64,000 nucleotides of DNA, taken from contig OX597827.1 of the NCBI GenBank assembly GCA_951406725.2, positions 60,512,001 to 60,576,000 on the forward strand, read 5' to 3'. The number at the start of each line of letters is the position of its first letter. The stretch's first letter is position 1. This document shows positions 17,531 to 60,503 of this stretch, one piece after another. The notes beneath the pieces were generated by a model. It was not told the origin of the DNA. It did no database searches and worked only from the letters and a program-made list of their open reading frames with translations. A program made the position numbers and the translations under genes. This stretch comes from Octopus vulgaris. Its lineage: Eukaryota.

Positions 17531-17891
17531 CTGTTGTGTCTGGGGAGAGTCATTTTCTTTTTGTGCCTTATAATGTAACACACTCACAGGTAAAATTTCC
17601 ACTTATTTCTTATTTTTATTTTCCTAAAATTTTCAATGCGTCTTGCAACCTTTTCAATAAGTTTTGACTCTGTCTGCAGTGTAAATAACGGACAGAGTCA
17701 AGACTTATTGAAAAGGTTGCAAGATGCAACAAAAATTTTAGGAAAATAAAAATAAGAAATAAGTGGAAATTTTATCGGTGAGTGTGTTAAATCATAAGGT
17801 ACAAAAAGAAAATTACTCTCCCCAGAAACAACAGAAAATGCTTCAACACACGAACTCATATAAAGAATCTTGCAAACCAATCCAAAAACGA
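17531..17891. mobile_element. Fold-back element with 12-bp TSD; relatives at ~2568-2810, ~7220-7432 and ~38336-38645
   Basis: ~145-bp inverted arms plus a ~55-bp tail ending GAATCTTGCAAACCAATCCAAAAAC. AATGATGTTATT is duplicated at 17519-17530 and 17892-17903. Confidence 0.75.
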
Positions 17892-19423
17892 AATGATGTT
17901 ATTGTTTACTTTTAGAATGGAATTGTAGGGTAGGTGCGAGAGGCTGGATCTAACAAGTTTGAACATAAAACAGGTGGAATATTTGGGCCAGATATGGCCA
18001 GTTTGAATACTAAAGGGTTGAAGATTTAAGATAGAGATAAGGTGCAGGCATGGACCCTTGTAGTTAACAAGCTTGTGATTTCATGTTCAATCCTTCTGCG
18101 CAGCACAGTGGGCAAATGTCTACTACAGCCCTGGGTTGATCAAAGGCTTGTGAAATTGAATAATTTACATGTTACTCTTTTACTTGTTTCAGTCATTTGA
18201 CTGTAGCCATGCTGGAGCACCGCCTTTTAGTCGAGCAAATCAACCCCAGGACTTATTCTTTGTAAGCCTAGTACTTATTCTATTGGTCTCTTTTGCCGAA
18301 CCACTAAGATAGTATGGGGACTTAAACACACCAGCATCGGTTGTCAAGTGATGTTGGGGGGACAAAAACAGACGCACAAACATATACACACACATACATA
18401 TATACGACAGGCTTCTTTCAGTTTCCATCTAACAAATCCACTCACAAGGCTTTAGTCGGCCCAAGACACTTGCCCAAGGTGCCATGCAGTGGGACTGAAC
18501 CCGGAACCATGTGGTTGGTAAGCAAGCTGCTTACCACACAGCCACTACTACGCTAAACCTGTTAGATTAATTTATTACTTGCTTAGTCATTAATGTTGAT
18601 TTAACTTGGGAATAACATTAAGTTATGAAGTAATGATATAATAGTAAGACTTTGTTAAAAAAACATGAAAAACAAATCATAGTAATATCTCTTAATGTTA
18701 GGCATGCAGTAAACTAGCAACTGACCCACTGGAAACCTATAATCAATGATACTATTTCTCATGCAGGTGTGGCAGTATGGTGTAAGACATAAAAGGCAGT
18801 GAGCTGGCTGAAATGTAAGCACACCAGGAGAAATGCCTAGTGGTATTTCGTCTGCTGCTACATTCCGAGTTCAAATTCCGCCAAGGTCGACTTTGCCTTT
18901 CATCCTTTCGGGGTCGATAAATTACATACCTATTTCTTTACTACCCACAAAGGGCTAAACACAGAGAAGACAAACAAGGACAGACAAACGGGTTAAGTCG
19001 ATTATATCGATCCCAGTGCATAACTGGTACTTAATTTATTGACCCTGAAAGGATGAAAGGCAAAGTCAACCTCGGCGGAATTTGAACTCAGAACGTAATG
19101 GCAGACGAAATACTGCTACGCATTTCACCCGGCGTGCTAACGTTTCTGCCAGTTCGCCGCCCTATAAATTACATACCAGTTACACACTGGGGTCGATGTA
19201 ATCGAATTAATCCCTTTGTCTGTTGTTGTTTGTCCCCTCTATGTTTAGCCCCTTTGTGGGCAATAACGAAATAAGTATGGTGTAAGACATTTGCTTACCA
19301 ATCACATGGTTCTGGGTTCAGTCCCATGATGCGGTGTCTTGGGCAAAGTGTCTTCTACTATAGCCTCAAGCCAACCAAAGCCTCCTGAGTAGATTTGGTA
19401 GACAGAAACTGAAAGAAGCTCAT

Positions 19424-19454
<31 letters not shown>

Positions 19455-19838
19455 GCATGCGTGTGAGTGTCTTTGTGTATTTGTCTCCCCCTCCCACCAC
19501 TTGACAACAGCTGTTGATGTATTTATATCCCTGTCACTTAGTGGGTCATCAAAAGAGACTGATAACAGAAGTATCAGACTTTTAAAAAAATAAGTACTGG
19601 GGTTGGTTCATTTGACAAAAATAATTCTTCAAGGTGGTGCCCCAGCATGGCCGCAGTCAAAATCAAATGACTGAAGCATTTACGATAACTTGCTATATAA
19701 AAATTTACACAAATGCATAAAATAACGTCCCAGATACCAAAAATCAATTCTATTATTGAATCATACGTATATCAAGGAAATATAAAATGCAAAAGATTTT
19801 TGTAACAGATGGAGACATGCAAATGATTTGTAACCTAC

Positions 19839-20003
19839 CATAGTTAAAAACTCGTGGTGAAGTGAGCTTGACATCCTTTAGTGTCCCAAGGTGATTCTGG
19901 ATGACAACACGGTAACCTTGACTCTGTGCATGGCTGACAAATGAACCAATGTAACAGCTCTCACTGTTGCTTCCATGGCCAGGGCACACAACTATTGTAA
20001 AGT
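19839..20003 (-). CDS. ABHD2: ABHD2-like exon (165 bp)
   Basis: Acceptor cctttcag, donor gtaggt. (D)FTIVVCPGHGSNSESCYIGSFVSHAQSQGYRVVIQNHLGTLKDVKLTSPRVFNY(G); in frame with both neighbours. Confidence 0.95.
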
Positions 20004-20044
20004 CTGAAAGGAAGAGGAATAAAAATACAATTAAATAAATATGT

Positions 20045-20465
20045 TATCTATTTATCTGTCTGTCTGTCTATCTACATACACATCTATCCATGTATCTAAG
20101 TATCCATCAATCTATCAATCCCTCCATCTATTTATCTATCAATCTATCAAACAGATCTACCCATCAATCAATCAAATATATCCAGCTATCAGTCAGATCT
20201 ACCCATCAATCAATCAAATCTGTCCATCTATCTATCCATCCATCAATCTATCTATCCAGCCATCAATCTATCCATCCATCCATCCATCAATCTATCTATC
20301 CATCAATCTATTCATCCATCCATCCATCTATCCCTCAATTCATCTATCTATCCATCCATCAATCTATCTATCCATCCCGCCATCAATCTATCTATCCATG
20401 CTGCCATCAATCTATCTATCCATCCCGCCATCAATCTATCTATCTATCCATCTATCAATCAATCA
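20045..20465. repeat. Compound (TCTA/TCCA/TCAA)n tetranucleotide repeat just upstream of an ABHD2 acceptor
   Basis: Directly visible; explains the SIYL/SIHP-type ORFs. Confidence 0.95.
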
Positions 20466-21115
20466 AAACATATTCTATTCCATCCTGGCATGGGTGAGGT
20501 GAAATTTGTTCAGGCAGATTTTCTATGGCTGGATGCTCTCTCTGTTGCCAACTCCCTCCTATTTCTAAACAAAGGAAATATTTCTCCATAGCCAGGCATT
20601 GTTTCTCACAGAACACTAGACACAAACATCATTTGTATGATGATGATGCTTGTCTATAGCCATTACATGATGTCAAGATAAGGGTACACACATACAATGA
20701 GTTTCTTTCAATTTCTATCTACCAAATCTACTCACAAGGCTTTGGTTGGCCCAGGGCTATAGTAGAAGATATTTGCCAAAAGTTCTACAGTGGGACTGAA
20801 CTTGAAACCGCATTATTAAGAAGCTAAACATCTAACTATAATTATGTCGGAGCAGAAATCTGCTCCGGCAATTATTATGACAAACAAATATGCTATGCAA
20901 ATGACCGTTAAATAAAGGGAAAAAAACCCGAAAGGTAGAAAGTAAAAGACGCTCATAGAATTTGCATATGCACCCATGTGCATACATACACATGCATGCA
21001 CACACATCCACGTTCGTGTGCCTATATGCATATGCTCACTCACACTCATGTGAAACACATACATGCACACCCATGCCTATATGTGCATATATATAGTATT
21101 TATTCATATATAGTA

Positions 21116-21153
<38 letters not shown>

Positions 21154-22730
21154 TTAATGTTTGTTCTTATGTTCAGTTATGACGAAAACAATTTTACATT
21201 AATCTGATAGGTTTTGCTGTACTTTTGTAGAAAATTAATTTACCATTCTTATACAAGAATGCTGTTTAAGCCATCCTCAGATGAAAGCTTACCTGGCTGA
21301 AGCTTTGAAGTCACTGTCAACAACATTCTTGTATAAGAATGATAAATACATACATTATGTGTATGTGTGTGTATATATATATATATATATACACTGGCGC
21401 CCGTGCCGGTGGCACGTAAAAAACACCCACTACACTCTCGGAGTGGTTGGCATTAGGAAGGGCATCCAGCTGTAGAAACTCTGCCAGATCAAGATTGGAG
21501 CCTGGTGCAGCCATCTGGTTCGCCAGCCCTCAGTCAAAATCGTCCAACCCGTGCTAGCATGGAAGGCAGTCGTTAAACGATGATGATGATATATATAGTG
21601 TACACAGGCAGAGGGAAGTGAAACAACATCAATAATATATAATTAATACTAATTAAAATCAAAACATTGTCCAAAGGTCAATTTTGTCGTTATCACTGGT
21701 GCCAGCAAGCTGGTGCCAACAAGCAGGTCTGTCTGATATCATTGGCCTCCATCCACTAGACCTGCCAAAGACAGAGACAGCCAGCTCTTCAGTAACACAC
21801 CATCAATGATATTTATGTAATATTTATTCCATTTCTGCATTCTTGGTGTATATTTAAACAAGTTATACAAAGCAAATATCTAAAGCTGAAAAGAAGTGGG
21901 GGGGGAAAAAAAAAAAGAAAAATTTACAGATACAGGTATGGTCATGTGGTTAAGTAGCTCGCTTTGCAAATTGTGGTTTTAGGTTCAATCCCACTATGTG
22001 ACATCTTGGGTGAATGTCTTCCGCTATAGCCCCAGGCTGATTAATGCCTTGTATATGAAGCTGTGTAGAAGTCCATAGTATTTATATACTCTTACTCTCT
22101 TACTTGTTTCAGTCATTTGACTGCGGCCATGCTGGAGCACCACCTTTATTCGATTTATTCTTTGTAAGCCTAGTACTTATTCTATTGGTCTCTTTTGCCG
22201 AACCGCTAAGTTACGGGGACATGAACACACCAGCATCGGTTGTCAAGCGATGTTGGGAGGACACACACAAACACACATATATATATACACATATACATGG
22301 CAGGCTTCTTTCAGTTTCCGTCTACCAAATCCACTCACAAGGCTTTGGTCGGCCCAAGGCTATAGTAGAAGACACTTGCTTAAAGTGCCATGCAGTGGGA
22401 CTGAACCCAGAACCATGTGGTTGGCAAGCAAGCTACTTACCACACAGCCACTCCTGCGCCTATATGTATATTTATATATGAACACATATACAAATATACA
22501 CACATATGTACATATACAGACTCACAATCACGCACACACACACAGAGTAGAATAAGAAATAGAAAGTCTTTGATGCAGTATAACGTATTTGAAAAAAAAA
22601 ATGAATAGAAATGGCTTTTCTGATAATTTTTCTGCTTTAATAAGATGTTTATAAGTTTAATCTTATAAACATCTAATTATTAAAGTGGAAAAATTATCAG
22701 AAAAGCCTCTTCTATTCATTTTCTCAAATA

Positions 22731-23070
22731 TCTATTATATAAAATCCGTTCTGTCTGTCTGTCTGTGTCTTCTAGGTTCTTGGGCATCCTCCATCCGATT
22801 GTGCTCAAATTTGATATGTAGATACCAACGGTATCAGGGCGTTGAAGAAATTACATAAAATCGATTCCAGGTGAGAATGCAATCGATAAAGCATTCTTTG
22901 GAATAGAAAAAAGTCTATCTTTATTTCTTCTTTTGCTGGTGTCTCAAATTTAGGTCAAATCAGTGTTTCTCAAAGGGGAGGCCTATGGGACGGTCGGACA
23001 AGTTGTTTTGAGAAAATTTGGCTTAAATGTTTGACAACTCAGCACCGTCCATTGGATGAGGGGTGTTTTG
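22731..23070 (+). mobile_element. Helitron-like 5' fragment
   Basis: A|TCTATTATATAAAA start followed by (TGTC)n and CCGATT...AAATTTG; 3' end not seen. Confidence 0.5.
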
Positions 23071-23100
23071 CTCGTATATATATATATATATATATATATA

Positions 23101-23500
23101 ACATGTTGTATCGAAAAGTTCCTGGATTAGTTCTGTAGTGTGCCAACAGATGGCAGCACAAGGTTGCATGCACAGAGAGAGCCAGCAGTGACCTTCATGA
23201 AGCAGTGTGCTGAGTGACATTGCCGTGTTTACTTTGTAAGTTATGAAATTTGTGTTGTTTTGACCATGTGTATGCTGTAGCATGTGATTTTGTCTTGGAC
23301 AGGAACAAAGAGCCAAATTGAAATTTTGTTTTAAACTTGAGAAGTCTGTTACAGAGACATTTAGCATGTTTTAGCAAGCTTCAGGTGAAAAGGCAATGGG
23401 TTATACACAGTGTTTTGAGTGGCATGGCCACTTCAAAAGTGGAAGAGTGTCCCTGGAAGACAGTGAGCAATCTGGAAGGCCTGCCACAAGCGACACCTCA
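23101..23500 (+). mobile_element. Degraded mariner 5' end (transposase HTH region)
   Basis: Translates EQRAKLKFCFKLEKSVTETFSMF*QASGEKAMGYTQCFEWHGHFKSGRVSLEDSEQSGRP; follows (TA)n. Confidence 0.75.
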
Positions 23501-24237
23501 GCTTTGTGAGTGAATTTGAGGTTATTAGAAGACCCTCAAAATGTTTAACCCTAACCCCAAATTTGCAAAGCAAACTGCTTCATCACACAACAATACTTTC
23601 TTATATCCAGTAATTATATATGTTGTAATATATATAGTAATTGCAGCATAAAACAGTTTACTATGGAAAGGCTTACACATTTATTGATAAAAATATTTAC
23701 AGCTAGCACAAATTACATATAATAGTAGTAGTATTAGTATTAATAATAATAATAATAATAGTAGTATTAATAGTAGTAACCATTACACGGCACAGCCAGT
23801 AGTTGTGATCTGTGAAAGGGGAAACAAAAATAAATCAAGAAAAAGAATGTGGTATTAGAAGAGTTTTAACCCTCTGTCTGTCCAAAGCATTTCCATAAGT
23901 TTGTCCTGAACGTCCATGCTTGTTTTTAGATTGTTCATTAGCTTTTGTTTCGTATGTTCTGAGTAGCATAAAACTTTCCTTTTATTTCAAAGGTACCAAG
24001 TTACTAGTGGGGGAGAAAATATCAGGAATAGGTATAATGCTGTATTTTCAGGCATACAAGTTGAATTTTTCTGAGCAAAATTTACAGTCAAAATAAGTAG
24101 GTTGACTTATACACCAAAACGACTTTGAAGGACAAATAGTTCCTTCTGAAATGCAGCAGGATTTGGAATGGTAATGACGATGTTTGAAGGTTTACATTAT
24201 GTATTACATTGACTTGTATGCTAGAAAATATGATATA

Positions 24238-24772
24238 CTAGCAGAAATACCCGTCATTGACTGGGTTCAGAAAGAGTCTTCAAAAATTATACCCTGATTT
24301 ATGAAAGTTACTGCTTCGATATTATTGAATGTTTTGTAGCAGAATCTCCGCAACATCTTATTGCCACGTTTCGGCCCCAAAAGTTATATTTTACTAATGG
24401 GTCTGGTGATAGTCTCTTCAGCTCTTTCTCTTTTCCTACGCTGAGATTGCATAGGTAGTCCAAATCTAATTTTTTTTTGGAGGCATTGTAGTAGGGTGAA
24501 TTAATCTATATGACAGGGGACTTAACTCATGTTAGCAAACTTATGGATTTCACCGACGTAAAAATGGTAAAAGTTATGGTTGGACAGCTATTTTTACCGC
24601 TATCCAAGGTTGCCTTGGGAAAAATAAGTTGACAAAAGCACAGCCATGGTTGTGACCAATGTTCTCCTAAAATTGGAGTGACATGCATGCTAATTTGTGG
24701 ACGTGCATAAAGTACATTCCCGTACACACACACACAGATATACACACACATCCTGCCTCTTATAGATATAGA
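24238..24772 (-). mobile_element. Non-autonomous Helitron
   Basis: Minus strand begins A|TCTATATCTATAAG and ends with hairpin ACCCAGTCAATGACGGGT then CTAG|T: canonical TC...CTAG termini in an AT target. Confidence 0.8.
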
Positions 24773-30399: not shown

Positions 30400-31224
30400 T
30401 TTATATCTTTAACTTCGTGCATGTACATGGTTTGTTTTTAATTTTGTCAACTACATAGTATAGTAGGGTCAGTTGGGCACTGTCTGTGAGAAAAACAGCA
30501 CCGCGATGCAATTCACTCTGCCAGAAACTTGGAAACAACATGCTGCTTGGCATTTGCACTGAAAGTGATAAAAATCATGCCAAGAGTGATAAAAATTATG
30601 CTGGAAGTGATAAAAATCAAACATCCAGTCAACATCATAGTGTTTAGAGTGATCACTAGTGATGGCAACATTATGCCTCCATTCATTGTCACGCACAACC
30701 TCAGACTCAACCTGGAAACCCACATCAAGTGCCTGGAGGAGGTAGTGCTGCCCTGGATCAAGAAGGTGATTGCTGGAAGATCCCATGTCTGGCAACAGGG
30801 CTCTGCACCATGCCACACAAGCAAGAGAACCCAGTCATGGCTGCCAGACAATTTCTGTGACCACACCACCCCTAACATCTGGCCACCTAACTCCCCAGAC
30901 TGCAACCTCCTTGATTATTATGTGTGGGGCACAGTTGAGTGAGAGACCAACAAAACTCCTTGTCACATAAAAGATGAACTGAAGGCAAGTATTATGACAA
31001 TATTCACCAACTTAAACAAGGAGACCCTCCAGAACAGTTGCAGGAGATTCTGAAGTCATCTGGAAGCCATGGTTGAAGCCAATGGCGATTTTATTGAATA
31101 AATTTACTCAATAGTATTTCGAGATATTTTTTTGTAATTTTGGTAAATATATCTGTTAAAAAGAGATGTCAGTGTTATTTTCATTTTTGAGTAATTTAGA
31201 TGACAGTTTATTTACTACACCCTG
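30400..31224 (+). mobile_element. Tc1/mariner-superfamily (maT/DD37D-like) transposase relic
   Basis: VWQQGSAPCHTSKRTQSWL...WPPNSPDCNLLDYYVWG motifs; ends CACCCTG-TA. Left boundary approximate. Confidence 0.8.
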
Positions 31225-31558: not shown

Positions 31559-31607
<49 letters not shown>

Positions 31608-35342: not shown

Positions 35343-35394
<52 letters not shown>

Positions 35395-35396
<2 letters not shown>

Positions 35397-35680
35397 AATC
35401 CAAACATGAAAACACAAAGAGAAAACACAACAACGCGAGGACGTGGAACAAGTATAGTGTTACTAGACACTCAGGAAAGGAAAGACAGAAGGAGGATTTA
35501 ACGTTTCGAGCAGAGCTCTTCGTCAGAAACATAGAAAGAGGAAAGGTCCAAGGAAGGGAAGACGGGAGAAAAAAAAAATCACCAACGATACACACGCGGT
35601 CACATATTTACAGTTGGGCACAAGTGAAAAACACCATTTATCTACACACGGATATAATTGAAGAAAATTAGTAGAATTAT
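35395..35680 (-). mobile_element. Penelope-like terminal-repeat fragment inserted into the microsatellite of a SINE
   Basis: Unique ~285-bp block splitting a SINE-A copy at its (TA)n/(GA)n run; carries a minimal hammerhead. Confidence 0.55.
35497..35529 (-). ncRNA. Minimal type I hammerhead motif (Penelope-type)
   Basis: Minus strand TTT-CTGACGA-A-GAGC-tct-GCTC-GAAA-CG-TT-AAA. Confidence 0.65.
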
Positions 35681-36514
35681 ATGTGTGTGTGTGTGTGTGT
35701 GAGTGTTTGTGTGTTTGTCCCCCACCATCACTTGACAACCAATACTGGTGTGTTTACATCCCTGTAACTTAGCAGTTCGGCAAAAGAGACTGATAGAATA
35801 AGTACTAGGCTTACAAAGAATAAGTCCTTGGGTCGATTTGTTCAACTAAAAGGCAGTGCTCTAGCATGGCCGCAGTCAAATGACTGAAACAAACAAAAGA
35901 AAGAATAGAATAAAGGATGCAGGAAGGATTGCAGTCTCAGATGGTCATGCTTGAGAGTCCATCAGGAAAGTGTAATGATGCCGTGGGTAGTAAAGACCCC
36001 CCCATGGAAAGTGATAAAACCCTGTGGAGCAGGTGCTTGAGTATTCCACAATGATCCCCCAGGAATAGTGGGTGGGGATAATGGATGGACGAAATAAATA
36101 TTTCACAGTTGTACAATTTTTTCAATACTAAAACATTTTTCTCAACCTTTGAAAAATGCTTCAGCAATATATATATATACATATATATAATTATATTTTA
36201 AAATATGTACTGATATAAAATCTCTTAACTGACACAATGACCCCGCTCCCTTCTTAGTACTACTCCCCCTCCCAGCCAAGGAGTTTTGTCTAGCAAGTTG
36301 CTTGTTGACTCTGTCCAGTGCTCATGCCATGTAAAAGGCACTCAGTTCACTCTGTTAAGTGGTTGGCATCCAGCAGTAGAAAACATGCCAAAACAGACAA
36401 TGAAGCCTGGTGCAGTTCCCCACCTTATTAGCTCTTGTCACATCATTCAACCAATGCCAGCATGGAATACAGACATTAAATGATGATGATTATATATCAT
36501 ATAATATATTATAT

Positions 36515-37032
36515 GATCAGTAAAAATTTAGATTCGGATGAATATGGTACTTAAGTTGAGGCACTAAAATTCAGTCTGGTATTATCCATACAATTTCAAA
36601 ATAAGGTGATTAAAATCAAAATAAGCAACAAGGATATCCAGAGGTAATGCAGTACGATCGTTTCATGCGACTCCATTTAATTGAACAATGCAATCATTTC
36701 ATTACATCAATTTAAAATGTAGAGCAATTTTCAGCTGCACAAAGACATAGAATTTAATTAAATTAGAAGGACACATGAGTATAATTTTACCTAAAATCTC
36801 CAAGAGGATAGGGAGATAGACAAAGAACATGTTTTCTCCTTATCCTCTGGGAGATTTTAGGTAAAATTATATTAATGTGTCCTTCTAATTTAATTAAATT
36901 CTATGTCTTTCTGCAGCTGAAGATTGCTCTACATTTTAAATTGATGTAAAGAATTGCATTGTTCAATTAAATGGAGTTGCATGAAACGATCGTACTGCAT
37001 TACCTCTGGACATCCTTGTTGCATATTTTGAT
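36515..37032. mobile_element. Asymmetric fold-back insertion (Penelope-like) with ~200-bp inverted arms at 36615-37032
   Basis: Arms are reverse complements around an ~18-nt spacer; the left arm has ~100 extra bp; TA-rich flanks; hammerhead motif in each arm. Confidence 0.7.
36912..36999 (+). ncRNA. Type I hammerhead ribozyme motif with extended helix II
   Basis: TGCAG-CTGAAGA-[~59-nt imperfect stem-loop]-GAAA-CGATCG-TA-CTGCA: perfect 5-bp helix I, intact core, palindromic helix III, GUA cleavage triplet. Confidence 0.75.
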
Positions 37033-40000
37033 AATCTATCTATCTATCTATATCTATATATATAAAGAGAGGGGGGAGAGAGAGGGGGGATGGAGGGAAA
37101 ATCGAAACAAACCTTCAATGGTTTTTATTCGTTAAGTCATCATGGAAGCAATTTAATTCCCATGCACATTGTCAAGGGCAATCTAGGCTGATGAAGCTCA
37201 ACTATCCACCACAAGGTCCAGTCCTTGTTATGATGTGGTAGCTTGCATGCCTCAATGACCCTGAAAGCTATGCCAATGATGCGCAAGCTTCAGGTACGTC
37301 TTTCAGTGCTGGACAAATCAAAGGATAGAGACTAAACTAATATTGAACATCTCTTCCCAAAGGTAAAAATGGATTCACATAGGGCCAACATTCCTACCCA
37401 GATAAAAAACAAAGTTACAAAAGAATTGGTGACAATTCAAAACCACAAAGACCTGATAGGGGAAGGCTATCTCTCAGGGGTAAACATATGATACATCAGG
37501 TCCTGACTTGGAACCCAGAAGGGAGGCGGAAGAGAGAATACCATGAAAATTGCTAGATGTGGGACACTGAAGCTGAGTTTTTTTTTTTTTTAAATAAAGC
37601 AGGGATCCAATTGGAGAAAAGCAGAAAAAACACCCCAGAGTTGAGAACAGTGGAGCAAAGCTGTTGATAGTCAGTGCTCCACAGAGAGTGATAGGGGCCC
37701 AACTATCATAAGAGTGTAGCCAGATGTTGTTGGTAACTCAGAATCAAACCTGATAAGTTGAAGACGACCAGAAACTGAATATGAAATTTTAATTGCAAGT
37801 GATCTGCTAACAAACATGTATTACTGACTTGGTTCCTTATTGTCACCATGAAAGTAGCAGATGTCCACAGTACTTGCAATAACCAATAGCTCATTCAAAT
37901 AGGGTAGAGTGAGCTTCATCATTCATTATTTAATGTCCATTTTTCCATGCTTGCATGGATTGGATGGAATTAGTTGAGGCAGATTATCTGTGGCCAGATG
38001 TTCTTGCTGTCGTCAACTCTGACCTGTTCCCCATGGCCAGACAAGTATTCCATGGAAGATTGGAAGCAAATAACATTATTCCTATGATGGTGATAGTCAT
38101 TTACAAACATCATGTGATGTTTAGACAAGGTCACACAAACACACACATACACAGCAGGCTTCTTTCAGTTTCTTTCTGCCAAATTGATAAGATTTTGATC
38201 AGTTAGGGGCTAAAGTAGAAAACACTTGCCCAAAGAGCTGTGCAGTGGGACTGAACCTAAGATCACATGGTTAGGAAACTACCTTGTTAACTACACACCC
38301 ACATCCACACAATGATAAAGTTAAATAAATATTCAATTTTTGTTGTATCTTGGGAGGGCTATTATTCCAATTATAAACACACACACACACAGGTTCTATT
38401 TCACTTCTTTTAGTCAATTGGTTAGCTTTTAACTAACTAACTAACCAATTGTTTGATTAATCATTCAGTTAATCAATCCATTTATCAAAATCCTTTTGTT
38501 GCCATTCATGACCTCATCAATGACGTGCCCATTCTATTCCAAGCCAGCATCTAATCACTAGCATAATGACTCACCAAGGTACAACAAAATTTGTTTCAGT
38601 GCACTAGTTTACGTCAAGAATTTCGCAAACCAAATACAAAAACAATAACATCCAATTATTTTGACGAAATAAGAGCCATATGTTTTGAATGACAGGTAAC
38701 AGTATGTGAAGATAAATACAAAAATACACCGTTACACTAACTCATAATATTTCTCACAAATTCTCCCCATCACCTCTTTTACTCTTTTACTTGTTTCAGT
38801 CAGTTGACTGCGGCCATGCTGGAGCACCACCTTTAGTCGAGCAACTCGACCCCGGGACTTATTCTTTGTAAGCCCAGTACTTATTCTATAGGTCTCTTTT
38901 GCCGAACCACTAAGTGACGGGGACATTAAACACACCAGCATCGGTTGTCAAGCAATGCTTGGGGGACAAACATAGATACACAAACATACACGCACACACA
39001 TATATATATATATATATATACATATATACGGCGGGCTTCTTTCAGTTTCCTTCTACCAAATCCACTCACAAGGTTTTGGTCGGCCCCGAGGCAATAGTAG
39101 AAGACATTTGCCCAAGGTGCCACGCAGTGGGACTGAACCCGGAACCATGTGGTTGGTAAGCAAGCTACTTATCACACAGCCATTCCTGCGCCTATACATT
39201 TCAGTCAATCAATGGTCATGCCTAGCTAGTAAGAAAGCTGTCTCCCACCCCTAGCACCCAACAGAAAATTATTAATTTCCTTTGTTGTTTATCCTCCTCC
39301 TCCTCTTCTTTTACATTCGTTTTTCCATACTGGCATGGGTTGAACTGTTTGACCAGAGCTGGCAAGCTGGAGGGCTGCACCAAGTTCTAGTCTGATTTGA
39401 CTGGGTTTCTAAAGCTGGATGCCCTTCCTAATGCCAACCACTTTACAGTGTGTGCTGGGTACTTTTAACATGGCACTGGCATGAGTGCATTTTATGTGAA
39501 ACTGGCACACAACTCTTGCAAGCCAATCCTTTCAACCAAGAAGAGTGGCCTTAATATTTCTTATTTCTTTATTGCCCACAAGGGGCTACACACAGAGGGG
39601 ACAAATGAGGACAGACAAATGGATTAAGTCAATTACGTCGACCCCAGTGCATAACTGGTACTTATTTAATCAACCCCAAAAGGATGAAAGGCAAAGTCGA
39701 CCTTGGCAGAATTTGAACTCAGAACTTAGTGGCAGACAAAATACCTATTTCTTTACTGCTCACAAGGGGCTACACACAGAGGGGACAAACAAGGACAGAC
39801 AAAAAGATTAAGTAGATTATATCGACCCCAGTGTGTAACTGGTACTTATTTAATCGACTCCGAAAGGATGAAAGGCTAAGGTGACCTCGGCGGAATTTGA
39901 ACTCAGAACGTAGTGGCAGACAAAATACAGCTAAGCATTTCGCCCGGCATGCTAACATTTCTGCTAGCTTGCTTTAATATTTCTGCTGTGGCGGACAGGT

Positions 40001-41182: not shown

Positions 41183-41464
41183 CTGGAAAAGTGAAATAAA
41201 ACAATATATTAATAAATAAATAGATAAAGCAGATTGGGCAGAGTAGCTTAACCCTTTTAATATTCAGAGTACCCCATAAAATTTAATGGTTTTTGATGGA
41301 AAGGAGAAAACGAAAAGTCCAAATTACGGAGGTGTACTTGCATAGCAAGTGACCTGATCTGAGATTGTGTGCTGAAACGAAAACAATTGCAGCGTGGAAG
41401 GTGTTTGTAAGCCATTTAAGAAACACACAAAAGCCTTTCGATTCACTTCAACATTTAAGTTTAA

Positions 41465-41685
41465 CCCTTTCATTACTGTATTTATTTTGAGATGCTCTGT
41501 GTTTCATTCAATTGATTTTAAATATAACAAAGAATTTAGTAAAATAACTTAGTTATCATTAAGCTGGTGTTAGGAACATAAATTGTGAGTAAGGTTTGGT
41601 GGAAGATTTTAATTCAAAACTTAAGAAAACAAGATATTTTACCACAGAGCCAGAGCCGGTTTTGGCTGGGTTAGTAACAAAAGGG
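41465..41685. mobile_element. piggyBac-type MITE (TTAA TSD, CCCTTT/AAAGGG ends)
   Basis: TTAA at 41461-41464 and 41686-41689; same family as 43241-43460. Confidence 0.85.
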
Positions 41686-41689: not shown

Positions 41690-41740
41690 TTTGTCAAAAT
41701 ATTTTCATCACTTTAAGACCACGACCTGTTCACTGACAAA
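41690..41740 (-). ncRNA. Type I hammerhead motif, G3:C8 core variant
   Basis: Minus strand TTTGTCA-GTGAACA-G-GTCGT-ggtcttaaa-GTGAT-GAAA-ATAT-TT-TGACAAA: perfect 7-bp helix I, GU-rich helix II, palindromic helix III. Confidence 0.65.
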
Positions 41741-43240: not shown

Positions 43241-43460
43241 CCCTTTCGTTAACATATTTATTTTGAGATGCTCTGCGTTTCCTTCAATTATTTTAAATAT
43301 AACAAAGAATTTAGTAAAATAACTTAGTTACCATTCTGCTAGTGTTACGAACATAAATTGTGACTAAGGTTTGGTGGAAGATTTTATTTCAGAACTTATG
43401 AAAACAAGACATTTGTACTTAGAGCCAGAGCCCGTTTCAGCCAGTTTGGTAATGAAAGGG
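43241..43460. mobile_element. piggyBac-type MITE, second copy
   Basis: TTAA-CCCTTTCGTTA ... TAATGAAAGGG-TTAA. Confidence 0.85.
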
Positions 43461-46400
43461 TTAAGGTATGAACTTTAACATTATATAGAAATACAAGAAT
43501 GTAATTAGATACTAAAAGATATTGAGATCTAATACTTCACCATACTTGTATTTCATAACCATAGTTCACATCATCAGGCATAGTGGGACAACATTCAAAT
43601 ATGTACCTGTATCTTATTACATTACATACCAGTCTTTTACATAATTTGAAGAAAAATTTGACCCAATATTAAGCAAAATGTCAGTGAATGAAAACAAAAA
43701 GGAAAATTTTCTCTATAACTATCGCTATAGCTACCATAGCTAAAAGGAGCTGTTGTTGCTATGTACTTATGTGTGAGCATGTCTGAACATATTTGTACAG
43801 CTTTTCATCTTTTCTTTGTCTCTTGGGGTTTTTTTTTTTTTGGTGTAAATGATTGGTTTCTGCATATAACAAGTGGCTCATCTAAAATATCCTCATCAAC
43901 ATCACCATCATCATGAACATCACTACCACCATTATCAATGTCAGTTTACCAATCCACTTTTCCATGCTTGCACGAGGCAGATGAAGGGCACATGGCTCAG
44001 TGGTTAGAACACCAGGTTCACAATCATGAGTAATGGGTTCAATTCTCAAACCGGGCTGTGTTGTGTTCTTGAGTAAGACACTTTATTTCACATTGTTCCA
44101 GTTCACTCATCTATAGAAATGAGTTGTGACATCACTGGTGCCAAGCTGTATTGGATAACATCAATGGTGTGGTGGTGCCAAACTGTATTGGATAACATCA
44201 GTGGTGTGAAGAGAGGCTGGTATGCATGGGTAACTGCTGGTCTTCCATAAACAACCTCGCCTGGACCTGTGCCATAGAGGGTAACTTTCTAGGTGTAATA
44301 CCATAGTCATTCATGACCAAAGGGGTCTTTTATCCTACTCTACAACCAAATTCCCTTTTGTCTTGCTAACCTTCACCTGTTTCCAAGTAAGGCAATAATT
44401 CCCCCAAGGCAAGACATGTTTCTTATGGAAAGCTGGAAACGAACAACCTTGCTTGTATGATCACATGGTGTGTTGACAAGAGTAAGGGTACACACACACA
44501 AACACGCAGACAACAGGCTTCCTTCAGTTGCTGATAACAAATTCACTTACAAGGCTTTGGTTGGCCTTGCACTTGTCCAAGGTGCTGCACAGTGGGACTG
44601 AACCCAAGACATGATTGGGAAGCAAGCTTCTTAATCACACATGCCTGTGCATTACTACACACACACACATGCGCACACATGCAGACACAGGCATGCACAC
44701 ACTGATGGCAAGCTTCCTTCAGTTTCTTATTTTTTTAATAATTATTTAAAAAAAAATTTTTTATTGCCCACAAGGGGTTAAATATAGAGGGGACAAACAA
44801 GGACAGACAAATGGATTAAGTTGATTACATCGACCCCAGTGCATAACTGGTACTTAATTTATCGACCCCGAAAGGATGAAAGGCAAAGTCGACCTCAGCA
44901 GAATTTGAACTCACAACACAGCTGTGAACAAAATACCACAAAGTATTTCACCTGGCATGCTAACATTTCTGCCAGCTCTGTCTACCAAATCCATTCACAA
45001 GCTTTATCCAGTCCAGAGCTATAGTAGAAGACATTTACCTCAGGTGCTACACAGCCACACCTGCACCTATCATGTATGTTAAATGTCAGTCATTTTGTTA
45101 TGGTGATTGCTTCAATGGTGGTCCAATCTTGTAGTTTGCGCTGAAGTGAAGTGTCAGAATGGCTTTTACACAAATTGGCCTGTGCTCTCAAACTTTTGGG
45201 GAGAACCTGGCCTTGAGGATTGTACTTCTTTGGATAAAACGTTTGGTAGAGCATTTTGCTTTCTATTCTGTATTTGGTTTTATTTTGGAAACACTGCTCC
45301 ACAGAAACCTGAATGCCATCTTTGTGATTGCTGCTGTCATTATCACAAATAATTGACTCACCTACATTATTATGCATTACCATCAAACCAACACGATTTA
45401 TCATTACAATCACCTTATCAGTACTACCATCACAACATCAATATCACAGGTATCACCATTATCATCATCATTGCTCTTACCATCATCATCATAATCATTG
45501 TTGTAATTACCAACACCACCACAACTACCACCACCACCACCATCATTGTCATCTCATTTCAATGCCTGTTCCTTGAAGTTTACACACTTTAAACAAGTAC
45601 GGTCACCTTAGCAACAGTGGTATGGAGATGGCGACCTGTTAAGTATATAGAGCTTTACAAGTGTAGCTTTATGGTGAGATAGATATCTTTTCTCTTGTCC
45701 AGGTACTGAGAAAAAGAGAGTGTATGGGGGGGGTGAGACAGAGAGAATGATAAGAGAAAATGTTACTAAGGGAGTTGAGAACATTAGGAGAGCAGGTGAG
45801 GTGGAGAGTAAAGAGGGAGGGAAGGAAGGGTTTAGAAATACTGACAGCAACCATTTCCTACTGAAAAAGCATTTGCCAATCAGTCCAAGGCAGTTGCATT
45901 AAGAATTGTAATTTATTTTCTTATTCTTTGGCTAATGGTTCTGCTTTCTACTTGAATTAGTGGCCAAGCCTATCTGGTGGTCAAACAGGCAACAAAGAAA
46001 GCAACAATGCTACTCATTGTAAATGTCGAAATATATTCTAATAACTGCGTACACATGTGGCTTAGTGGTAAGGGTACTTGGCTCATGATCATAAAGCCGG
46101 GAGTTCAATTCCCAGTAGTGCATTGTGTTCTTCAGCAAAACACTACATTTCATGCTACTCCAGTTCAGTTTGCTGGTAAAAATGAGTGGTATCTGTATTT
46201 CAAAAGGCCAGCCTTGTTACAATCTGTATCATGCTGGATCTCCTTAATAACTACATTAAGGGTGTACACAGGTCTGTGGAGTGCTCAGCCACTTGCACCT
46301 TTAATTTCATGAACAGGCTGTTCCATTGATTATATCAACTAGAACTTTCATCATCGTAACTGACAGGGTGCCAATAATTCTAACAACTACCACACAGAAA

Positions 46401-49586: not shown

Positions 49587-49598
49587 AATAATATATAT

Positions 49599-51473: not shown

Positions 51474-51508
<35 letters not shown>

Positions 51509-52552: not shown

Positions 52553-52591
<39 letters not shown>

Positions 52592-53610: not shown

Positions 53611-53763
53611 CAGTGGAGCAATTGTTTTCACAGCTATATGGAATTGCTTCTTCCCAATTAACCACTACAGAAGTACTGAAGTGGACAAAACCAGTTCTGT
53701 TGAATCAAATGGTACAACTCAAACACGAAATGTTGTTCGCTGTTTACCTGGTTGTCAGACCAG
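53611..53763 (+). other. Possible isolated plus-strand exon (153 bp) of an unknown transcript
   Basis: Pyrimidine tract ending ttag, CAG|gtagat donor, length a multiple of 3, two open frames, non-repetitive sequence. No homology recognised. Confidence 0.3.
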
Positions 53764-56700
53764 GTAGATATAGGCATTGAATTCAGATAGAATAAAAGAT
53801 CCATTAATGAGAAAATATTTCTATTGTTTTACATATGTTTCGTTTTTAACCTGTTGTTTATCTCAGTCATCATTCGAGTGGCATCATCACCATCGACATC
53901 ATTGTCTTCCGTGCTAGATGGGCCAGATGGAATTTACTGAAGCAGATTTTGTACGACTTGACGACTTTGCCATTGTCAACCCTCACCTGATTCCAAGTAA
54001 GGTAATATTTCCCCGTCACCAGATGTTTTGACTAAAGACTGACAGTGAATGACACTCCTGGCATGATGGTGACACTCATTCACAACAATCACATGGTGTC
54101 AAGACAAACACACACACACACACACACAGAAAGGAGGAATTACAACCGTGTTTCATGGTCTGCTACCACAACAGCTCCTTTATAGGATCCAGTTAGCTCA
54201 AGACATCATCAGGAGGAACCACGTCCGGTTTCGGCCCCTACTCCTCTACCGTTTTGACGTGGCGGGGGCCCCCCACTTTCGGAGGTATCTTCAGCTCTGG
54301 TGTTGGGTGCATGTCTTCTTTCTTCTGTTCCCTGGCCTCTTCGATGTATCGTCAGCGAGTGTCAGCCAGTGACTGAATGTCTTGTCAAATTTCTCCCTTT
54401 AAATACCTGCTGCATAGGGGACTTCTTACAGTTTCCATCTCCCAAATTCATTCACAAAATTTTGGTTGAATCTGAGCCAGAAAAGATATTTGCCCAAGGT
54501 GCCACGCAGTGGGATTGAACCCAAAACCATGTTGTTGGGAAGCAAACTTCTCATAGCCACACCTGCATCTAACTCCTTTCCACTTGTTGTTTATTCCAGT
54601 CATTATTCAAGACATTTATAATAAAAAAATATTCTGGCCATGACCATGATTGAATTTGGTTAGCAGACAGAAACTATGCTGAAGCCCATTATATACATAT
54701 ATATGTATATGTCTATCTCTCACACACTGCAATTGACAACCAGTGTTTGTTTATGTTCCCCACAGCAGTTTGGCAAAAGATTTTCCAAGAATAAGAATAA
54801 GGTCGGTTTGCTGGCATAACCGCTAACACAGATGTGTTAACAAAGGGATGTGGGTTCAAGTCCCACGAGTACAGGAAAGCCTACATTTTAAGCGCAGGAG
54901 TGGCTGTGTGGTAAGTAGCTTGTTTACCAGCCACATGGTTCTGGGTTCAGTCCCACTGCGTGACACCTTGGGCAACTGTCTTCTACTAGAGCCTTGTGAG
55001 TGGATTTGGTAGACGGAAACTGAAAGAAGCCCGTTGTATATATGTATATATATATGTGTGTGTTTGTGTTTGTCACCCCAACATCGCCTGACAACCGATG
55101 CTGGTGTGTTTATGTCCCCGTAATCTAGCAGTTCAGCAAAAGAGACCGATAGAATAAGTACTAGGCTTACAAAGAATAAGTCTTGGGGGTCAATTTGCTC
55201 GACTAAAGGCGATGCTCCAGCATGGCCGCAGTCAAATGACTGAAACAAGTAAAAGAGTAAACCCAAAAAGCAAAAACAAAACCAAAAAAGTACAGGGATT
55301 GATTTGTGTGACTAAAATCCTTCAAGAGAGCACTCCAGCATGACCATAGTCCAATGACTGACAGCAGTAAAAGACATACAAATAATTACATAAAATCTCA
55401 AACAGGATTGTCTCCCACCCCACCAGATACACACCCCTTTCAGAAAGAGAGACTTCAGCATTTTAGTCATCAATTGGCTGCTTTGTAACTGGAAATGACT
55501 CACAACAACAGCTATGACCGTTACTTAATGTTGACCATTACTTAGTAAGAGCTTTGTGATTCAGTACTTGAAATTCAAATAAATAAATTAATAAAATTTT
55601 AAAAAATAAATAACTTATCTACAGATACTAGCATGGCTGTGTGGTAAGAAATTTGCTTCCCAACCACATGGTTCCAGGTTCAGTCCAGTCCCACTGCATG
55701 GCACCTTGGGCAAGTGTACTTATAGCTTCAGGCTGACCAAAGCCTTCTGAGTGGATTTGGTAGATGGAAACTGAAAGAAGCCCATTGTTGTATGTCTTGT
55801 ACTCTGTATTTTCGTTGTTTGAAAAAAAGTTTGTTTCAATGTTTTTGTTTTTATGTTTTCGTTTCTCATTGTGTTCCACATTTTTTTGATGTCCTGTACC
55901 CATATATGCATGTTTATATACATATATATGTAGGTATGTATATATGCATATATTTATATATTATTTATATTATTATATGATCAAACACCACGCATTCTTT
56001 TCCAAGTAAGTTTTATCTATCTACATACATACATACATACATACATACATACATACATACATGTATGTATGTATATGCCTATGTGTGCATGTCTTTGGGT
56101 CTGTGTTTGTCCCCTCCACCACTGCTTGACAACCAGTACTGGTGTGTTTATGTGACTGTGACTTAACAGTTCAGCAAACAAGACCAATAGAATAAGTACC
56201 AAGCTTAAAAAAAATAAGTCCCAATGTTGATCTGTTGTTTGACTAAAACCCTTCAAGACAGTGAGTTACTCCAGCATGGCCGCGATCAAATGACTGAAAC
56301 AAATAAAAGATATTGCTAATAGGTACAGGCATGACAGTGTGGTCAAGAAGCTTGCTTCCCAACCGTGTGGTCCTGAGTTCAGTTTTGACTTGGGTAAGTA
56401 AGTGTCTTCTACAATGGCCCTGGGCTCACCAAAAGCCTTGTGACTGAATTTGGTAGAAACCCATCACGTGTTGCATCCATGTGTGTGCGAGTGCACACAC
56501 ATTCACACAATATACACACATTTATAATATACATCTATAATATATATGCACATATTTATAATATGCACCTCCAGGCACGTAAAAAGCACCATCCGATCGT
56601 GGTAGTTTGCCAGCCTCGTCTGGCACGTAAAAAGCACCCACTACACTCACGGAGTGGTTGGCATTAGGAAGGGCATCCAGTTGTAGAAACATTGCCAGAT

Positions 56701-57634
56701 CAGACTGGGCCTGGTGCAGCCTTCTGGCTTCCCAGACCCCAGTTGAACCGTCCAACCCATGCTAGCATGGAAAGCGGACGCTAAACGAAGATGATGATGA
56801 TGATATATAAAATATATATATATATATACACACACATACACACAGAATATACATATATGATATCCTCATCATCATTTAACATTCGTTTTTCATGTCAGTA
56901 TCTGTGTTTGTTCCCCCCACCATCGCTTGACAACCGATATTGGTGTGTTTACATCCCCATAACTTAGCAGTTTTGGCAAAAGAGACTGATAAAGTAAGTA
57001 CTAAGCTTACAAAAAATAAGGCCTGGGGTCAATTTCTCGAACTAAAAAAAAAAAACTTTAAAGCAGTGCTCCAGCATGGCCACAGTCAAATGACTGAAGC
57101 AAGTTTCAGAATAAAAGAATATTATCCAGGATGCATTGTGCCTGATAGATGAACAAAAAACAAAAAAAAAACCAATGTTCATTAGACGAATGATTTTAAT
57201 CCAATCAAGGTTACCCAGATTCCAAACAATAATAACAAGAGCAGCCAGAATAATAAACATACAAGAAATTTTCTTCTCTACCAATTTGCCCTTTGCAACT
57301 CGCGAAATTGCAGGGGGTTGGGGCGGGTGGGTGGGTGTAACGCTAAGCAAAAAATAAAATAAAATAATAATAACAATAATTTAACGTAATTTTCCATCAA
57401 AATTTGTTATTTTGCGATTTCCACTCCATGAGCTTGCAGAAACCAATCCTAGCGAGTTAGCATCCTTTGATCGATATAAACTGAACTATAAATTCTTGTT
57501 TATTCCTAGCCCTCTCTCTTATTTGCCCAAGTTGTTCAGTCTGTGGCTATTTATAAAGGAAAAGTCGAAGCACTTTTATAAATATCATTAATCATTAATT
57601 TATTCAATCAAGCCTAAATTTATACACCTGATTA

Positions 57635-57958
57635 ATATACACACACATACACACACACATATACACACACACATATGCACACATAGACATATACATACAC
57701 ACATACACACACATACATACACACACATATACACACACACACATACGTACACATATATACACACGTATGCACACACATACAGATCTACACACATACATCT
57801 ATACACACACACACATATGCATACACATACATCTATACACACACACATATGCATACACATATACTCACACATACATCTATGCACACATATGCATACACAC
57901 ACACATATGCATACACATACTCACACACACATCTATTACACACACATATATATATATG
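57635..57958. repeat. Degenerate (CA/TA)n microsatellite; others include (AAT)n 6207-6292, (TA)n 8115-8163 and 31564-31607, (CA)n 47955-48110
   Basis: Directly visible. Confidence 0.95.
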
Positions 57959-58359
57959 AGCTTTAAACAACGATTAGACACAGCTCCTTTCTCTCTCTCA
58001 TTTAAGCCTATTCATACACATAACCACACACACACACACACACACTCAATCATATACAGACTCAAAACAGACTAAACTACTTCAGGTCTTAGTAATAACA
58101 TAGGCTGCTATGAAGCTTGCATGCACACACACACACACATCAATTCACTTGAGGTTCTTGTAATAAACATACGCTGTTATTGTATGCTCTCTGTACGCAA
58201 TTTATATTATGGTTTTAGAAAACACACACACACACGCACCTTGCCAATAAATATAAAATATAAAACAAACCACAGAAACTAATTAACTAGAAGCATATAC
58301 ATGTCTTTATAATCAGCAATTGATACATTATTAATTTTATTAATAACAAGAACAATAAC

Positions 58360-58790
58360 AACTTGCTAGAAATAACAGCCAAATAACCCTCAAATCACAT
58401 CCTATTATCAACAGCAATGACAACTTGCTAGAAACAAGAGTCAAATTGCCCTCAGATCACACCTTGTTAACAACAGCAACAATAACAACTTGCTAGAAAC
58501 AGCAATGAAACCACCCTCAGATCACATCCTCTAAACAACAGCAATAATAACTTGCTGGAAATAACAGCCAAATAACCCTCAAATCACACCCTATTATCAA
58601 CAGCAAATAAAAACTTGCTAGAAACAAGAGTCAAATTGCCCTCAGATCACACCTTGTTAACAACAGCAATGATAACAACTTGCTAGAAACAACAATGAAA
58701 CCGCCCTCAGATCACATCCTCTAAACAACAGCAATAATAACTTGCTAGAAATAACAGCCAAATCATCCTCAGATCACAGCGTACTATCTT
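58360..58790 (+). repeat. Minisatellite of ~62-65-bp units with a 3-unit (~190-bp) higher-order repeat
   Basis: AACTTGCT.GAAA starts at about 58360, 58422, 58487, 58549, 58612, 58677 and 58739; variant order A-B-C-A-B-C-A. Confidence 0.9.
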
Positions 58791-59335
58791 AAGATGGAGT
58801 GTTCATAGCCAGAAAAACCATTGATCATAGGCCTGTTCAATTAGAGCTGATCTGGGACCACACAGCGAGGAAAACCAAAGTAAATTGACAACAGGTTTAA
58901 ATAAGAACTAATTTGATAAGATTATTGAAACCGGATTTTTTGAGCAGCAGCAGTAGTAGTGGTGGTGGTGGTGGTGGTGATGGTACAGTGTTGTAGTAAT
59001 GGTAGTAGTGATTGTGTGTGTATAATAGTGGTGACAGTTGCAAAAGTAGTTTGGTGATAGTAGTTGTAGTAGTGGTGGTGGTGGTGTGTTGTAGCAGCGG
59101 TGTAAAATAATGGTAGTGTGTGGTGTGGTTGCATGTCATCGTAATGGTGGCAGTGGTTGTTCAGTGTTATAGAAGTAGTGATAGTTGCAGAAATTAGTTA
59201 GTGGTAGTTGTGACAGTAGTAGTAGCAGCAGCAGCTTTGGTGGTGGTGGTGGTGGTGATGAGTACAGCCCCTCTATTAGGCTTCCATACAGTTTCCATCA
59301 ACTCAACTTTACTCACAAGACTTAGGTTAATTTGA

Positions 59336-59985
59336 GGTCGTGGCCTATGCCAGGGGTGTAACCAGCCCACTTATGCGTACCTTTTCCTTCTTTGGACACT
59401 GAACTCTGCTTGCGTAGACCTATTGAGGCAAGTGTAATTGAAATCAAATTCGATGACTGGCATCCGTGCTAGCGGGGTGCAAAGAGCACCATACGAGTGT
59501 GATCGTTGACAGAGCGGCTAACCGGCTTCCGTGCCAGTGACACATAAAAGGTACCATTTGAGTGTGATCATTACCAGCGTCGCCTTACTGGCACTTGTGC
59601 CCTGTGCTAGTAGGCTGCTAAAAGCACCATCCGAGCGTGATCGTTGCTAGAGTGGCTAACCAGCTTCTGTGCCGGTGGCACATAAAAGGCACCATTCGAG
59701 TGTGATCATTACCAGCGTCACCTTACTGGCGCCTGTGCCGGTGGCATGTGTAAAAAGATTTGAGCGAGGTCATTGCCAGTACCGCCTGACTGGCCCACAT
59801 GCCAGTGGCACATAAAAGCACCCACTACACTCTCGGAGTGGTTGGCATTAGGAAGGGCATCCAGCTGTAGAAACTCTACCAGATCAAGATTGGAGTCTGG
59901 TGCAGCCATCTGGTTTGCCAGCCCTCTGTCAAATCGCTCAACCCATGCTAGCATGGAAGGCAGACATTAAACAATGATGATGAGG
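59336..59985 (+). mobile_element. Same (ATG)n-tailed retroposon family; shorter 5'-truncated copies at ~21393-21590, ~25622-26062 and ~56570-56803 (all +)
   Basis: Common 3' end CCAACCCATGCTAGCATGGAA...TAAACGATGATGATG with a variable number of ~60-bp units upstream. Confidence 0.8.
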
Positions 59986-60250
59986 AGGAGGGGGACTAGA
60001 AACTTGATCAAGGTACTGTGCAGTGGGATTGAACCTGAAGCTAAGGGATTGCAAAGCAAATATCGTAAACTGCACAGACATGTTTGTCACTAATATAATT
60101 TGAGATTTTGATGATGTTATTATTTATGTTCAGAATGACTTGTCTTCCACAGGTACAGGCTTGTCCTTTCAGGTGCTGGTACCACATAAAAAGCACCTAT
60201 GTCAGTGCTGAGTAAACAGCACCCTTGCTGGTGACATGTATATATATATA

Positions 60251-60503
60251 ACGGGAAGGTTTACGAAAATAAACAAAAGACGAAGGCAGGTGGAGTACAA
60301 ACAAACAAAGGTATTAGTATGGTGCTCAGGAATAGAAATAGAACAAGTCTTTTACGTTTCGAGCCTACGCTCTTCGACAGAATGATACACAGAAAAAAAC
60401 AAGGAGAGAAAAAAAATGCGTGTAGGAGCTAACGATCTATCATGGCGTCCTGACTTCAGACAGTGGTCAGGGGAGATAACAGGGTCAAGTAACTTCCAAT
60501 AGA
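60251..60503 (-). mobile_element. Penelope-like terminal-repeat fragment next to (TA)n
   Basis: Starts at a (TA)n run, carries a hammerhead-like motif, and has a layout similar to the 35395 insert. Confidence 0.5.
60350..60382 (-). ncRNA. Minimal hammerhead-like motif with A6U core change
   Basis: Minus strand TT-CTGTCGA-A-GAGC-gtag-GCTC-GAAA-CG-TA-AAA; same helix II arms as the 35497 motif with a different loop. Confidence 0.5.

Follow-up and report, generated by a model that had tools for sequence, protein, structure and literature searches.

Does the presence of several short hammerhead ribozyme motifs, with three different base pairs between core positions 3 and 8, in one stretch of the Octopus vulgaris genome reflect selection on Penelope-like elements (PLEs), and does their gathering at one locus mean anything by itself? 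The stretch in question, hereafter the window, comprises 64,000 nucleotides (nt) of contig OX597827.1 (assembly GCA_951406725.2, positions 60,512,001 to 60,576,000 of the forward strand), and is numbered here from its first letter. An initial annotation had attributed the motifs to several non-autonomous, Penelope-related families selected for self-cleavage. Using a combination of methods (own-genome searches, structural descriptors with shuffled controls, upstream walks and protein trees), we propose as the probable explanation that they are minimal type I hammerheads located at the 3′ ends of PLEs, in the pseudo-long terminal repeats (pLTRs). The window copies would be dead, 5′-truncated insertions, and their active parents are likely to have been selected for the 3:8 pair.

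Hammerhead motifs of the window

A direct reading of this AT-rich and microsatellite-rich animal DNA showed that the five motifs named in the initial annotation are present, at the positions and with the 3:8 states that it gave them. It also revealed a sixth motif absent from that list, the inverted arm at 36648-36740 on the minus strand. The motifs are as follows.

17623-17661, minus strand: U3:A8 motif, inverted arm; helix II is damaged in the window copy (family majority, UUGAAAA)
17704-17742, plus strand: U3:A8 motif, forward arm, with a G12A copy mutation
35497-35529, minus strand: C3:G8 minimal motif of the 'short' family
36648-36740, minus strand: second motif of the 'long' family, inverted arm, with a G8A copy mutation
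36912-36999, plus strand: C3:G8 motif of the 'long' family; helix II is U.U-closed and there is a 51-nt insert
41690-41740, minus strand: G3:C8 minimal motif of an autonomous PLE family
60350-60382, minus strand: C3:G8 motif with a family-fixed A6U (core CUGUCGA)

The two U3:A8 arms have the core UUGAAAA, an AAUU helix III and U17. The motif at 35497-35529 combines a CUGACGA core, an extra A, a 4-bp helix II, GAA, ACGU and U17; that at 36912-36999 combines a CUGAAGA core, a 3-bp helix II closed by U.U and carrying the 51-nt insert, ACGAUCGU, A17 and a 5-bp helix I; and the G3:C8 motif combines a GUGAACA core, a 5-bp helix II, AAUAUU, U17 and a 7-bp helix I. Helices I and II, the extra nucleotide after A9 and the palindromic helix III are present, helix I being just 3-4 bp long in three families. 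The minimal type I core (N3-U4-G5-A6-N7-N8-A9...G12-A13-A14, with a Watson-Crick 3:8 pair, A15.1-U16.1 and H17) was found in the majority of copies of four of the five window families, and the fifth one (60350), which departs from it at A6, is classed as a core variant. The Penelope-type minimal type I layout attributed to the window motifs is borne out.

A minimal type I descriptor with A6 fixed and a Watson-Crick 3:8 pair, which was designed after the motifs had been seen and misses those at 36912 and 60350, gave 3 matches in the window, compared with a mean of 0.017 and a maximum of 1 in 60 block shuffles. The same descriptor with a non-Watson-Crick 3:8 combination gave 0 window matches, versus 0.12 in block shuffles. 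No hammerhead family occurred among the 120 Rfam matches to the window at E<=10, which were mainly microRNA (miRNA) models lying on inverted repeats and microsatellites. The monomer folding energies of five window copies were not unusual (z from −1.73 to +0.43); that of a G3:C8 copy from the intact family gave z=−3.6.

Covariation of the 3:8 pair across repeat families

Each motif turned out to be a member of a genome-wide repeat family, as ascertained by searching the octopus genome itself (1050, 1273, 1334, 3061 and 681 first-look candidates for the five families, 40 being scored in each case). In a 600-kb sample, made of 60 stretches of 10 kb taken at round coordinates elsewhere in the 2.8-Gb assembly, the five families had 7, 7, 4, 10 and 9 matches of at least 40 nt. 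Scaled from this sample, the copies of each family number on the order of 10^4, so that five motifs in 64 kb represent an ordinary density. The occurrence of several motifs at one locus needs no explanation beyond these copy numbers.

The 3:8 states are strongly family-specific: G:C in 75/75 distinct contexts of the G3:C8 family, U:A in 42/50 anchored contexts of the U3:A8 family, and C:G in 42/43, 35/37 and 42/45 contexts of the 'long', 'short' and A6U families, respectively. In the last of these, U6 was present in all 18 of the GTAG-type-loop copies first found, where N7 is represented by all four bases, and in at least 42 of 45 contexts of a larger set. A6U is fixed across the 60350 family and is no one-off; its origin as copy decay was ruled out, since U6 is fixed across the family while N7 varies.

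When positions 3 and 8 were left free in the descriptor, all 22 matches in the 600-kb sample proved to be Watson-Crick (2 G:C, 5 U:A and 15 C:G, the last including 7 from a single tandem array), and eight shuffles gave 0 matches. A relaxed scan of 1.94 Mb of genome sequence yielded 14 recurring clusters, 13 of them with a Watson-Crick majority. The remaining A:A cluster (3 copies, located in an open reading frame (ORF) and showing U4G and a loop of 68 nt) was regarded as a chance occurrence and removed before families were counted, and one cluster was split into the 'short' and A6U families, making 14 families in the count. The pair is Watson-Crick in 14/14 families (9 C:G, 4 U:A and 1 G:C), with a permutation p of ~1e-4 that overstates independence, as the 14 families are related.

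A tree of the six protein-linked families and four relatives places the G:C family, a U:A family and a C:G family (with A9C) in one clade (98/99), at 48-58% identity, and its second clade holds both U:A and C:G families. This two-clade tree implies that C:G and U:A interchanged at least two times and that G:C arose at least once. It contains no named reference proteins, and the labels 'Nematis-like' and 'Neptune-like' are presumptive. Together, the free descriptor, the family count and the tree support the view that the 3:8 pair covaries at the family level. Selection on the 3:8 pair speaks for selection on the fold, of which self-cleavage would be a putative target.

The comparison of core and flank conservation within four families (0.997/0.916, 0.987/0.974, 0.997/0.833 and 0.987/0.975) was not accepted as a test of selection, because it is biased: the loci were picked by core-containing queries, truncated ends lie within the flanks, and in dead copies drift is neutral.

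Link to Penelope-like elements

Walking upstream from the G3:C8 motif, we crossed a microsatellite-rich untranslated region of ~1 kb and reached a frame encoding an endonuclease and a reverse transcriptase (RT). Long open frames end ~1000 nt before an intact G3:C8 motif in the loci L263 (615 codons), L264 (1025 codons) and L265 (839 codons). In the locus L302, G3:C8 motifs at positions 2742 and 7003 flank a 777-codon frame, defining a unit of 4261 nt, and an ATG frame starts at 2834, i.e. 57 nt past the predicted cut site, to be interrupted further on. The G3:C8 family has a pLTR-ORF-pLTR layout with inverted 5′ arms and an optional tail, and a single ORF encoding RT plus a GIY-YIG endonuclease at the C terminus, as judged from the L264 and L265 frames and their alignment to the protein P0002. 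The encoded protein (P0015) contains the motif YVDD and, at the C terminus, an endonuclease region, and it aligns (E=3e-15) to P0002, which carries the Pfam domains RVT_1 and GIY-YIG; a PDB sequence search with P0015 gave 0 matches. As for the U3:A8 motif, a related endonuclease frame lies upstream in 3/30 loci (L077, L078 and L079), and neither an intact copy nor an RT core was recovered from these 30 loci.

Hence, of the RT/GIY-YIG ORFs that the initial annotation had suggested looking for, linked examples were found in the G3:C8 and U3:A8 families, and none in the 'short', A6U and 'long' families. Its term 'non-autonomous' does not hold for the first two, whose window copies are 5′-truncated ends of autonomous RT-GIY-YIG elements. 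The possibility that the G3:C8 family is non-autonomous with a fixed 5′ end was ruled out by the upstream walk to intact frames.

The 3′ ends of the copies fall at two places in the G3:C8 family (131-144 in 9/30 and 190-211 in 15/30), in the U3:A8 family (134-147 in 14/29 and 184-208 in 10/29) and in the 'long' family, which has inverted arms and two preferred 3′ ends (19/30 and 10/30). The 'short', A6U and 'long' copies all end at microsatellites. PLEs are characterised by inverted 5′ arms, an optional tail and microsatellites as targets (PMC8557442, PMC11167929). We conclude that the window motifs are PLE 3′ ends in two families and likely so in the other three. Upstream of the 'long' motif, L253, L254 and L390 share over 1.6 kb of very AT-rich sequence, in which the search for a parent recognised no frame in either direction, and the sequence upstream of an A6U copy (L378) had no PLE match.

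Three apparent associations were set aside. An in-frame PLE ORF beside the G3:C8 motif in L182 belongs to a different, young PLE inserted in the following (TA)n, and the PLE fragments found beside a 'short' copy (L138) and after an A6U copy (L261) were treated as neighbours.

In the G3:C8 family, a pattern of branch point, pyrimidines and AG precedes helix I by ~15 nt (L302:2698-2725, plus strand), and in the 'long' family it overlaps helix I (window 36880-36916, plus strand). All 28 of 28 short G3:C8 copies reach 22 nt or less upstream, about to the branch-point AG, according to a rough count. The AG pattern near helix I in these two families recalls Drosophila Penelope, where an intron ends at helix I (PMC4209133); splicing here is putative.

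Core variants in related families

Two further departures from the canonical core are fixed in PLE families with intact frames, namely A9C (CUGAUGC) in 41/41 contexts, with frames of up to 1312 codons, and A13C (GCAA), together with U3:A8, in 27/27 contexts, with 775-codon frames. Older relatives of both families carry the canonical base (L217; L144 flank). The fixed A6U, A9C and A13C cut against strong selection for fast cleavage. By analogy with natural A6C, whose cleavage is poor in Mg2+ and stronger in Mn2+ (PMC3088659, PMC7151607), A6U is predicted to weaken cutting.

The A9C family (L272:4360-4410, plus strand; L293; L297) is a young PLE that occurs in tandem arrays and has a non-palindromic 6-nt helix III. 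The A13C family (3′ end of L162; L183:7320-7370, plus strand) is also a young PLE, with many identical 775-codon frames and an older relative with GAAA. In L181, L182 and L184 (minus strand), tandem PLE units of 4271 nt have overlapping frames of 454 and 775 codons, a CCGAAGA core (U4C) and a U.U-closed helix II. We do not claim U4C as fixed in a third intact family, as it occurred in 2/2 contexts in one count and 1/2 in another. Finally, L304:3070-4560 (plus strand, with an inverted arm) contains a retrozyme-like 359-nt head-to-tail repeat, every unit of which bears a type I hammerhead of canonical appearance, and singletons related to this repeat carry C3:G8 and U3:A8.

Proposed mechanism and alternatives

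In the mechanism that we propose, two motifs in a tandem or readthrough transcript would pair via their palindromic helix III, and the paired motifs would cut slowly, probably helped by the element's own protein, thereby trimming the precursor. Uncut RNA would be reverse-transcribed from a point 90-200 nt downstream of the motif, so that genomic copies would keep the whole motif; the genomic copies do retain a complete, uncut motif. Any Watson-Crick 3:8 pair would be tolerated, because position 8 acts through its 2′-OH (PMC8495972), and, to judge from the fixed A6U, A9C and A13C, cutting may need to be no more than weak or protein-gated. For PLE hammerheads a dimer model with low activity has been described (PMC4209133), and the lizard PLE PAc (Poseidon of Anolis carolinensis; Frangieh et al. 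2024, PMC11167929) shows no cleavage without protein, cleavage that is dispensable for insertion in vitro, an internal RT start and a tail.

Several points weigh against the interpretation of the motifs as selected hammerheads at PLE 3′ ends, in addition to the relatedness of the 14 families and the removal of the A:A cluster. In the lizard PLE, besides the dispensable cleavage, no RNA-seq ends were seen at the cut site (PMC11167929). Four public contig sets examined on L264:370-1000 displayed no cluster of starts or ends and no splice joint, though as assembled contigs they are uninformative either way, and minimum-energy cofolding of two copies did not recover a clean helix-III dimer. A Pfam scan of P0015 gave no direct match, the 'short' family has a single 3′ end (25/30), and the upstream search, mostly in flanks of 1.5 kb, yielded no in-line RT-endonuclease ORF in the 'short', A6U or 'long' family.

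It is very improbable that the covariation is an artefact of the choice of descriptor, or of chance matches amplified by repeat expansion. The descriptor was indeed made after seeing the motifs, copies within one family are not independent, and one A:A cluster was taken out; yet the shuffles gave no match even with positions 3 and 8 free, and the motif stands at the pLTR position in six protein-linked families belonging to two clades. The shuffle result and the tree largely refute this explanation. We also regard it as unlikely, though with more in its favour, that cleavage is vestigial and that what maintains the fold is a function other than catalysis, for instance in protein binding, splicing or the start of translation where pLTR and ORF meet. 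Such a role would fit with the fixation of A9C and A13C in intact-frame families and of A6U in a large family, with the strong decrease in activity that A6C reportedly causes in Mg2+ (PMC3088659, PMC7151607), with the retention of the uncut motif in genomic copies, and with the normal insertion of catalytic mutants in vitro (PMC11167929). However, the 3:8 pair, kept in 14/14 families, belongs to the active conformation (PMC3884650), and G5, G12 and A14 are kept in all 14 family majorities; that H17 is never G follows from the descriptor design and lends no independent support here.

A further alternative, which we find quite conceivable, concerns autonomy alone and is compatible with the explanation that we prefer for the ribozyme: the 'short', A6U and 'long' families might indeed lack autonomy, as pLTR derivatives (solo-pLTR or retrozyme-like) that PLE proteins mobilise. 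Most 'short' copies begin ~75-80 nt before the core, just L129 and L148 having been seen longer, the three families have no in-line upstream PLE protein match, and a tandem hammerhead repeat of 359 nt exists elsewhere in the genome (L304). On the other hand, the G3:C8 family likewise seemed short before longer copies were sought, the 'long' family has variable 5′ ends and reaches upstream by over 1.6 kb, and most loci were covered with a 1.5-kb flank. Returning to hammerheads at PLE 3′ ends, a more speculative extension, which we put forward as possible though doubtful, is that PLE cores form a natural allelic series (G3:C8, A9C, A13C and A6U fixed, the 3:8 pair never broken) of slow protein-gated switches that would cut nowhere but inside the retrotransposition particle. 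Under this extension, A6U possibly shifts the metal preference, as A6C does.

Comparison with known systems and significance

PLE minimal hammerheads and natural U3:A8 have already been published (PMC4209133, PMC3088659). The octopus motifs resemble the metazoan PLE hammerheads of Cervera and de la Pena 2014 (PMC4209133) in their type I topology, extra nucleotide after A9, palindromic helix III, short helix I, pLTR location, mostly solo truncated copies and opposite-strand pairs, as well as in the U3-A8 variant (~1,300 matches in Schistosoma) and the U.U-closed helix II, as in the Hydra alignment row. They differ in that the consensus there is CUGANGAH, with no G3:C8 family and no family-fixed A6U, A9C or A13C in the sections of that paper used here, and in the 51-nt helix II insert of the 'long' family.

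Similarly to the octopus elements, PAc has a hammerhead at the pLTR-ORF junction, AT-rich targets, and copies that end within the first ORF codons at two preferred sites (the tail) (PMC11167929). An engineered C3G/G8C double mutant of PAc partly restored cleavage (PMC11167929), so that G3:C8, a laboratory mutant there, is here found naturally in a family whose frames are intact. The ORF starts 57 nt past the cut site in octopus and inside stem II in PAc, and the optional extension measures ~55-60 nt in the former versus 30-40 in the latter (PMC11167929).

Among natural core variants, U3-A8 covariation, A6C, a U10.1-U11.1 mismatch and U4C have been described (Perreault et al. 2011, PMC3088659; PMC7151607) and are akin to those found here; they are rare phage, bacterial and viroid cases, whereas the octopus variants are fixed in families of ~10^4 copies, and G3-C8 and A6U are not named in the passages concerned. 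The non-LTR animal retrozymes (bioRxiv 10.64898/2026.07.22.740005, PMC7761336) likewise have type I hammerheads that are related to PLE pLTRs. These retrozymes consist of non-coding units repeated in tandem, whereas the window copies are solo or head-to-head, and two of them are the ends of coding elements. Head-to-tail non-coding repeats with hammerheads occur in the unrelated L304 array alone.

It is well supported that the arrangement is a known one, in which the natural G3:C8 of an intact-gene family and the fixed A6U are apparently unreported variants; neither RNA nor element belongs to a new class. Lunse, Weinberg and Breaker (2017) reportedly deal with small dimer-cleaving hammerheads linked to PLEs, going by title and citation. 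For G3:C8, the literature search found the engineered form only, with Lunse 2017, Przybilski and Hammann 2007, Arkhipova 2017 and one supplement file of PMC4209133 lying outside it. No natural A6U family was found in the literature searched; absence from print is not established, as Lunse 2017 may list G3:C8 or A6U.

What PLE minimal hammerheads do in vivo is still described as a mystery (PMC7761336). Compensation of the 3:8 pair at the family level, including a full swap to G:C in an element with intact frames, constitutes comparative evidence of selection on active-site geometry, and the families with fixed A6U, A9C or A13C are natural constructs for asking how much cleavage an element needs. 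The initial annotation was also right that a CUGANGA-only search would overlook three of the five window families; since CUGANGA/GAAA descriptors miss them, hammerhead counts in such genomes are too low.

Other features of the window

The insertions that carry the motifs, and an unrelated element that splits one of them, are as follows.

17527-17896: head-to-head truncated 3′ ends of the U3:A8 PLE (17527-17674, minus strand; 17676-17896, plus strand, with tail extension), delimited by blastn against a family copy
35393-35608, minus strand: 'short' family copy of ~215 nt, microsatellite at its end, no parent ORF found
36504-37032: head-to-head 'long' insertion (36504-36834, minus strand, with tail extension; 36835-37032, plus strand)
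41322-41464, minus strand: remainder of the G3:C8 PLE end, with the initial ORF codons and tail extension
41465-41685, no strand assigned: unrelated high-copy short element (miniature inverted-repeat transposable element, MITE) with terminal inverted repeats, inserted at a duplicated TTAA directly after helix I of the G3:C8 motif
60236-60500, minus strand: A6U family copy ending in (TA)n, 5′ end approximate, no parent ORF found

The window copy of the G3:C8 family ends at helix I in the 5′ direction, and its 3′ side is interrupted by the 221-bp TTAA-flanked MITE, which we take to be piggyBac-like and which has a second window copy at 43243-43464. Fragments without the hammerhead core represent the U3:A8 family at 2566-2805, 7353-7431 and 38565-38643. 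A common SINE-like repeat (SINE, short interspersed nuclear element) occupies 13271-13440, head-to-head around a TA microsatellite, and accounts for plant miRNA matches below gathering scores. Two open reading frames on the plus strand, at 2774-3604 and 30490-30939, are presumably, to judge by their motifs, remnants of the C-terminal part of a non-LTR RT and of a Tc1/mariner transposase, respectively.

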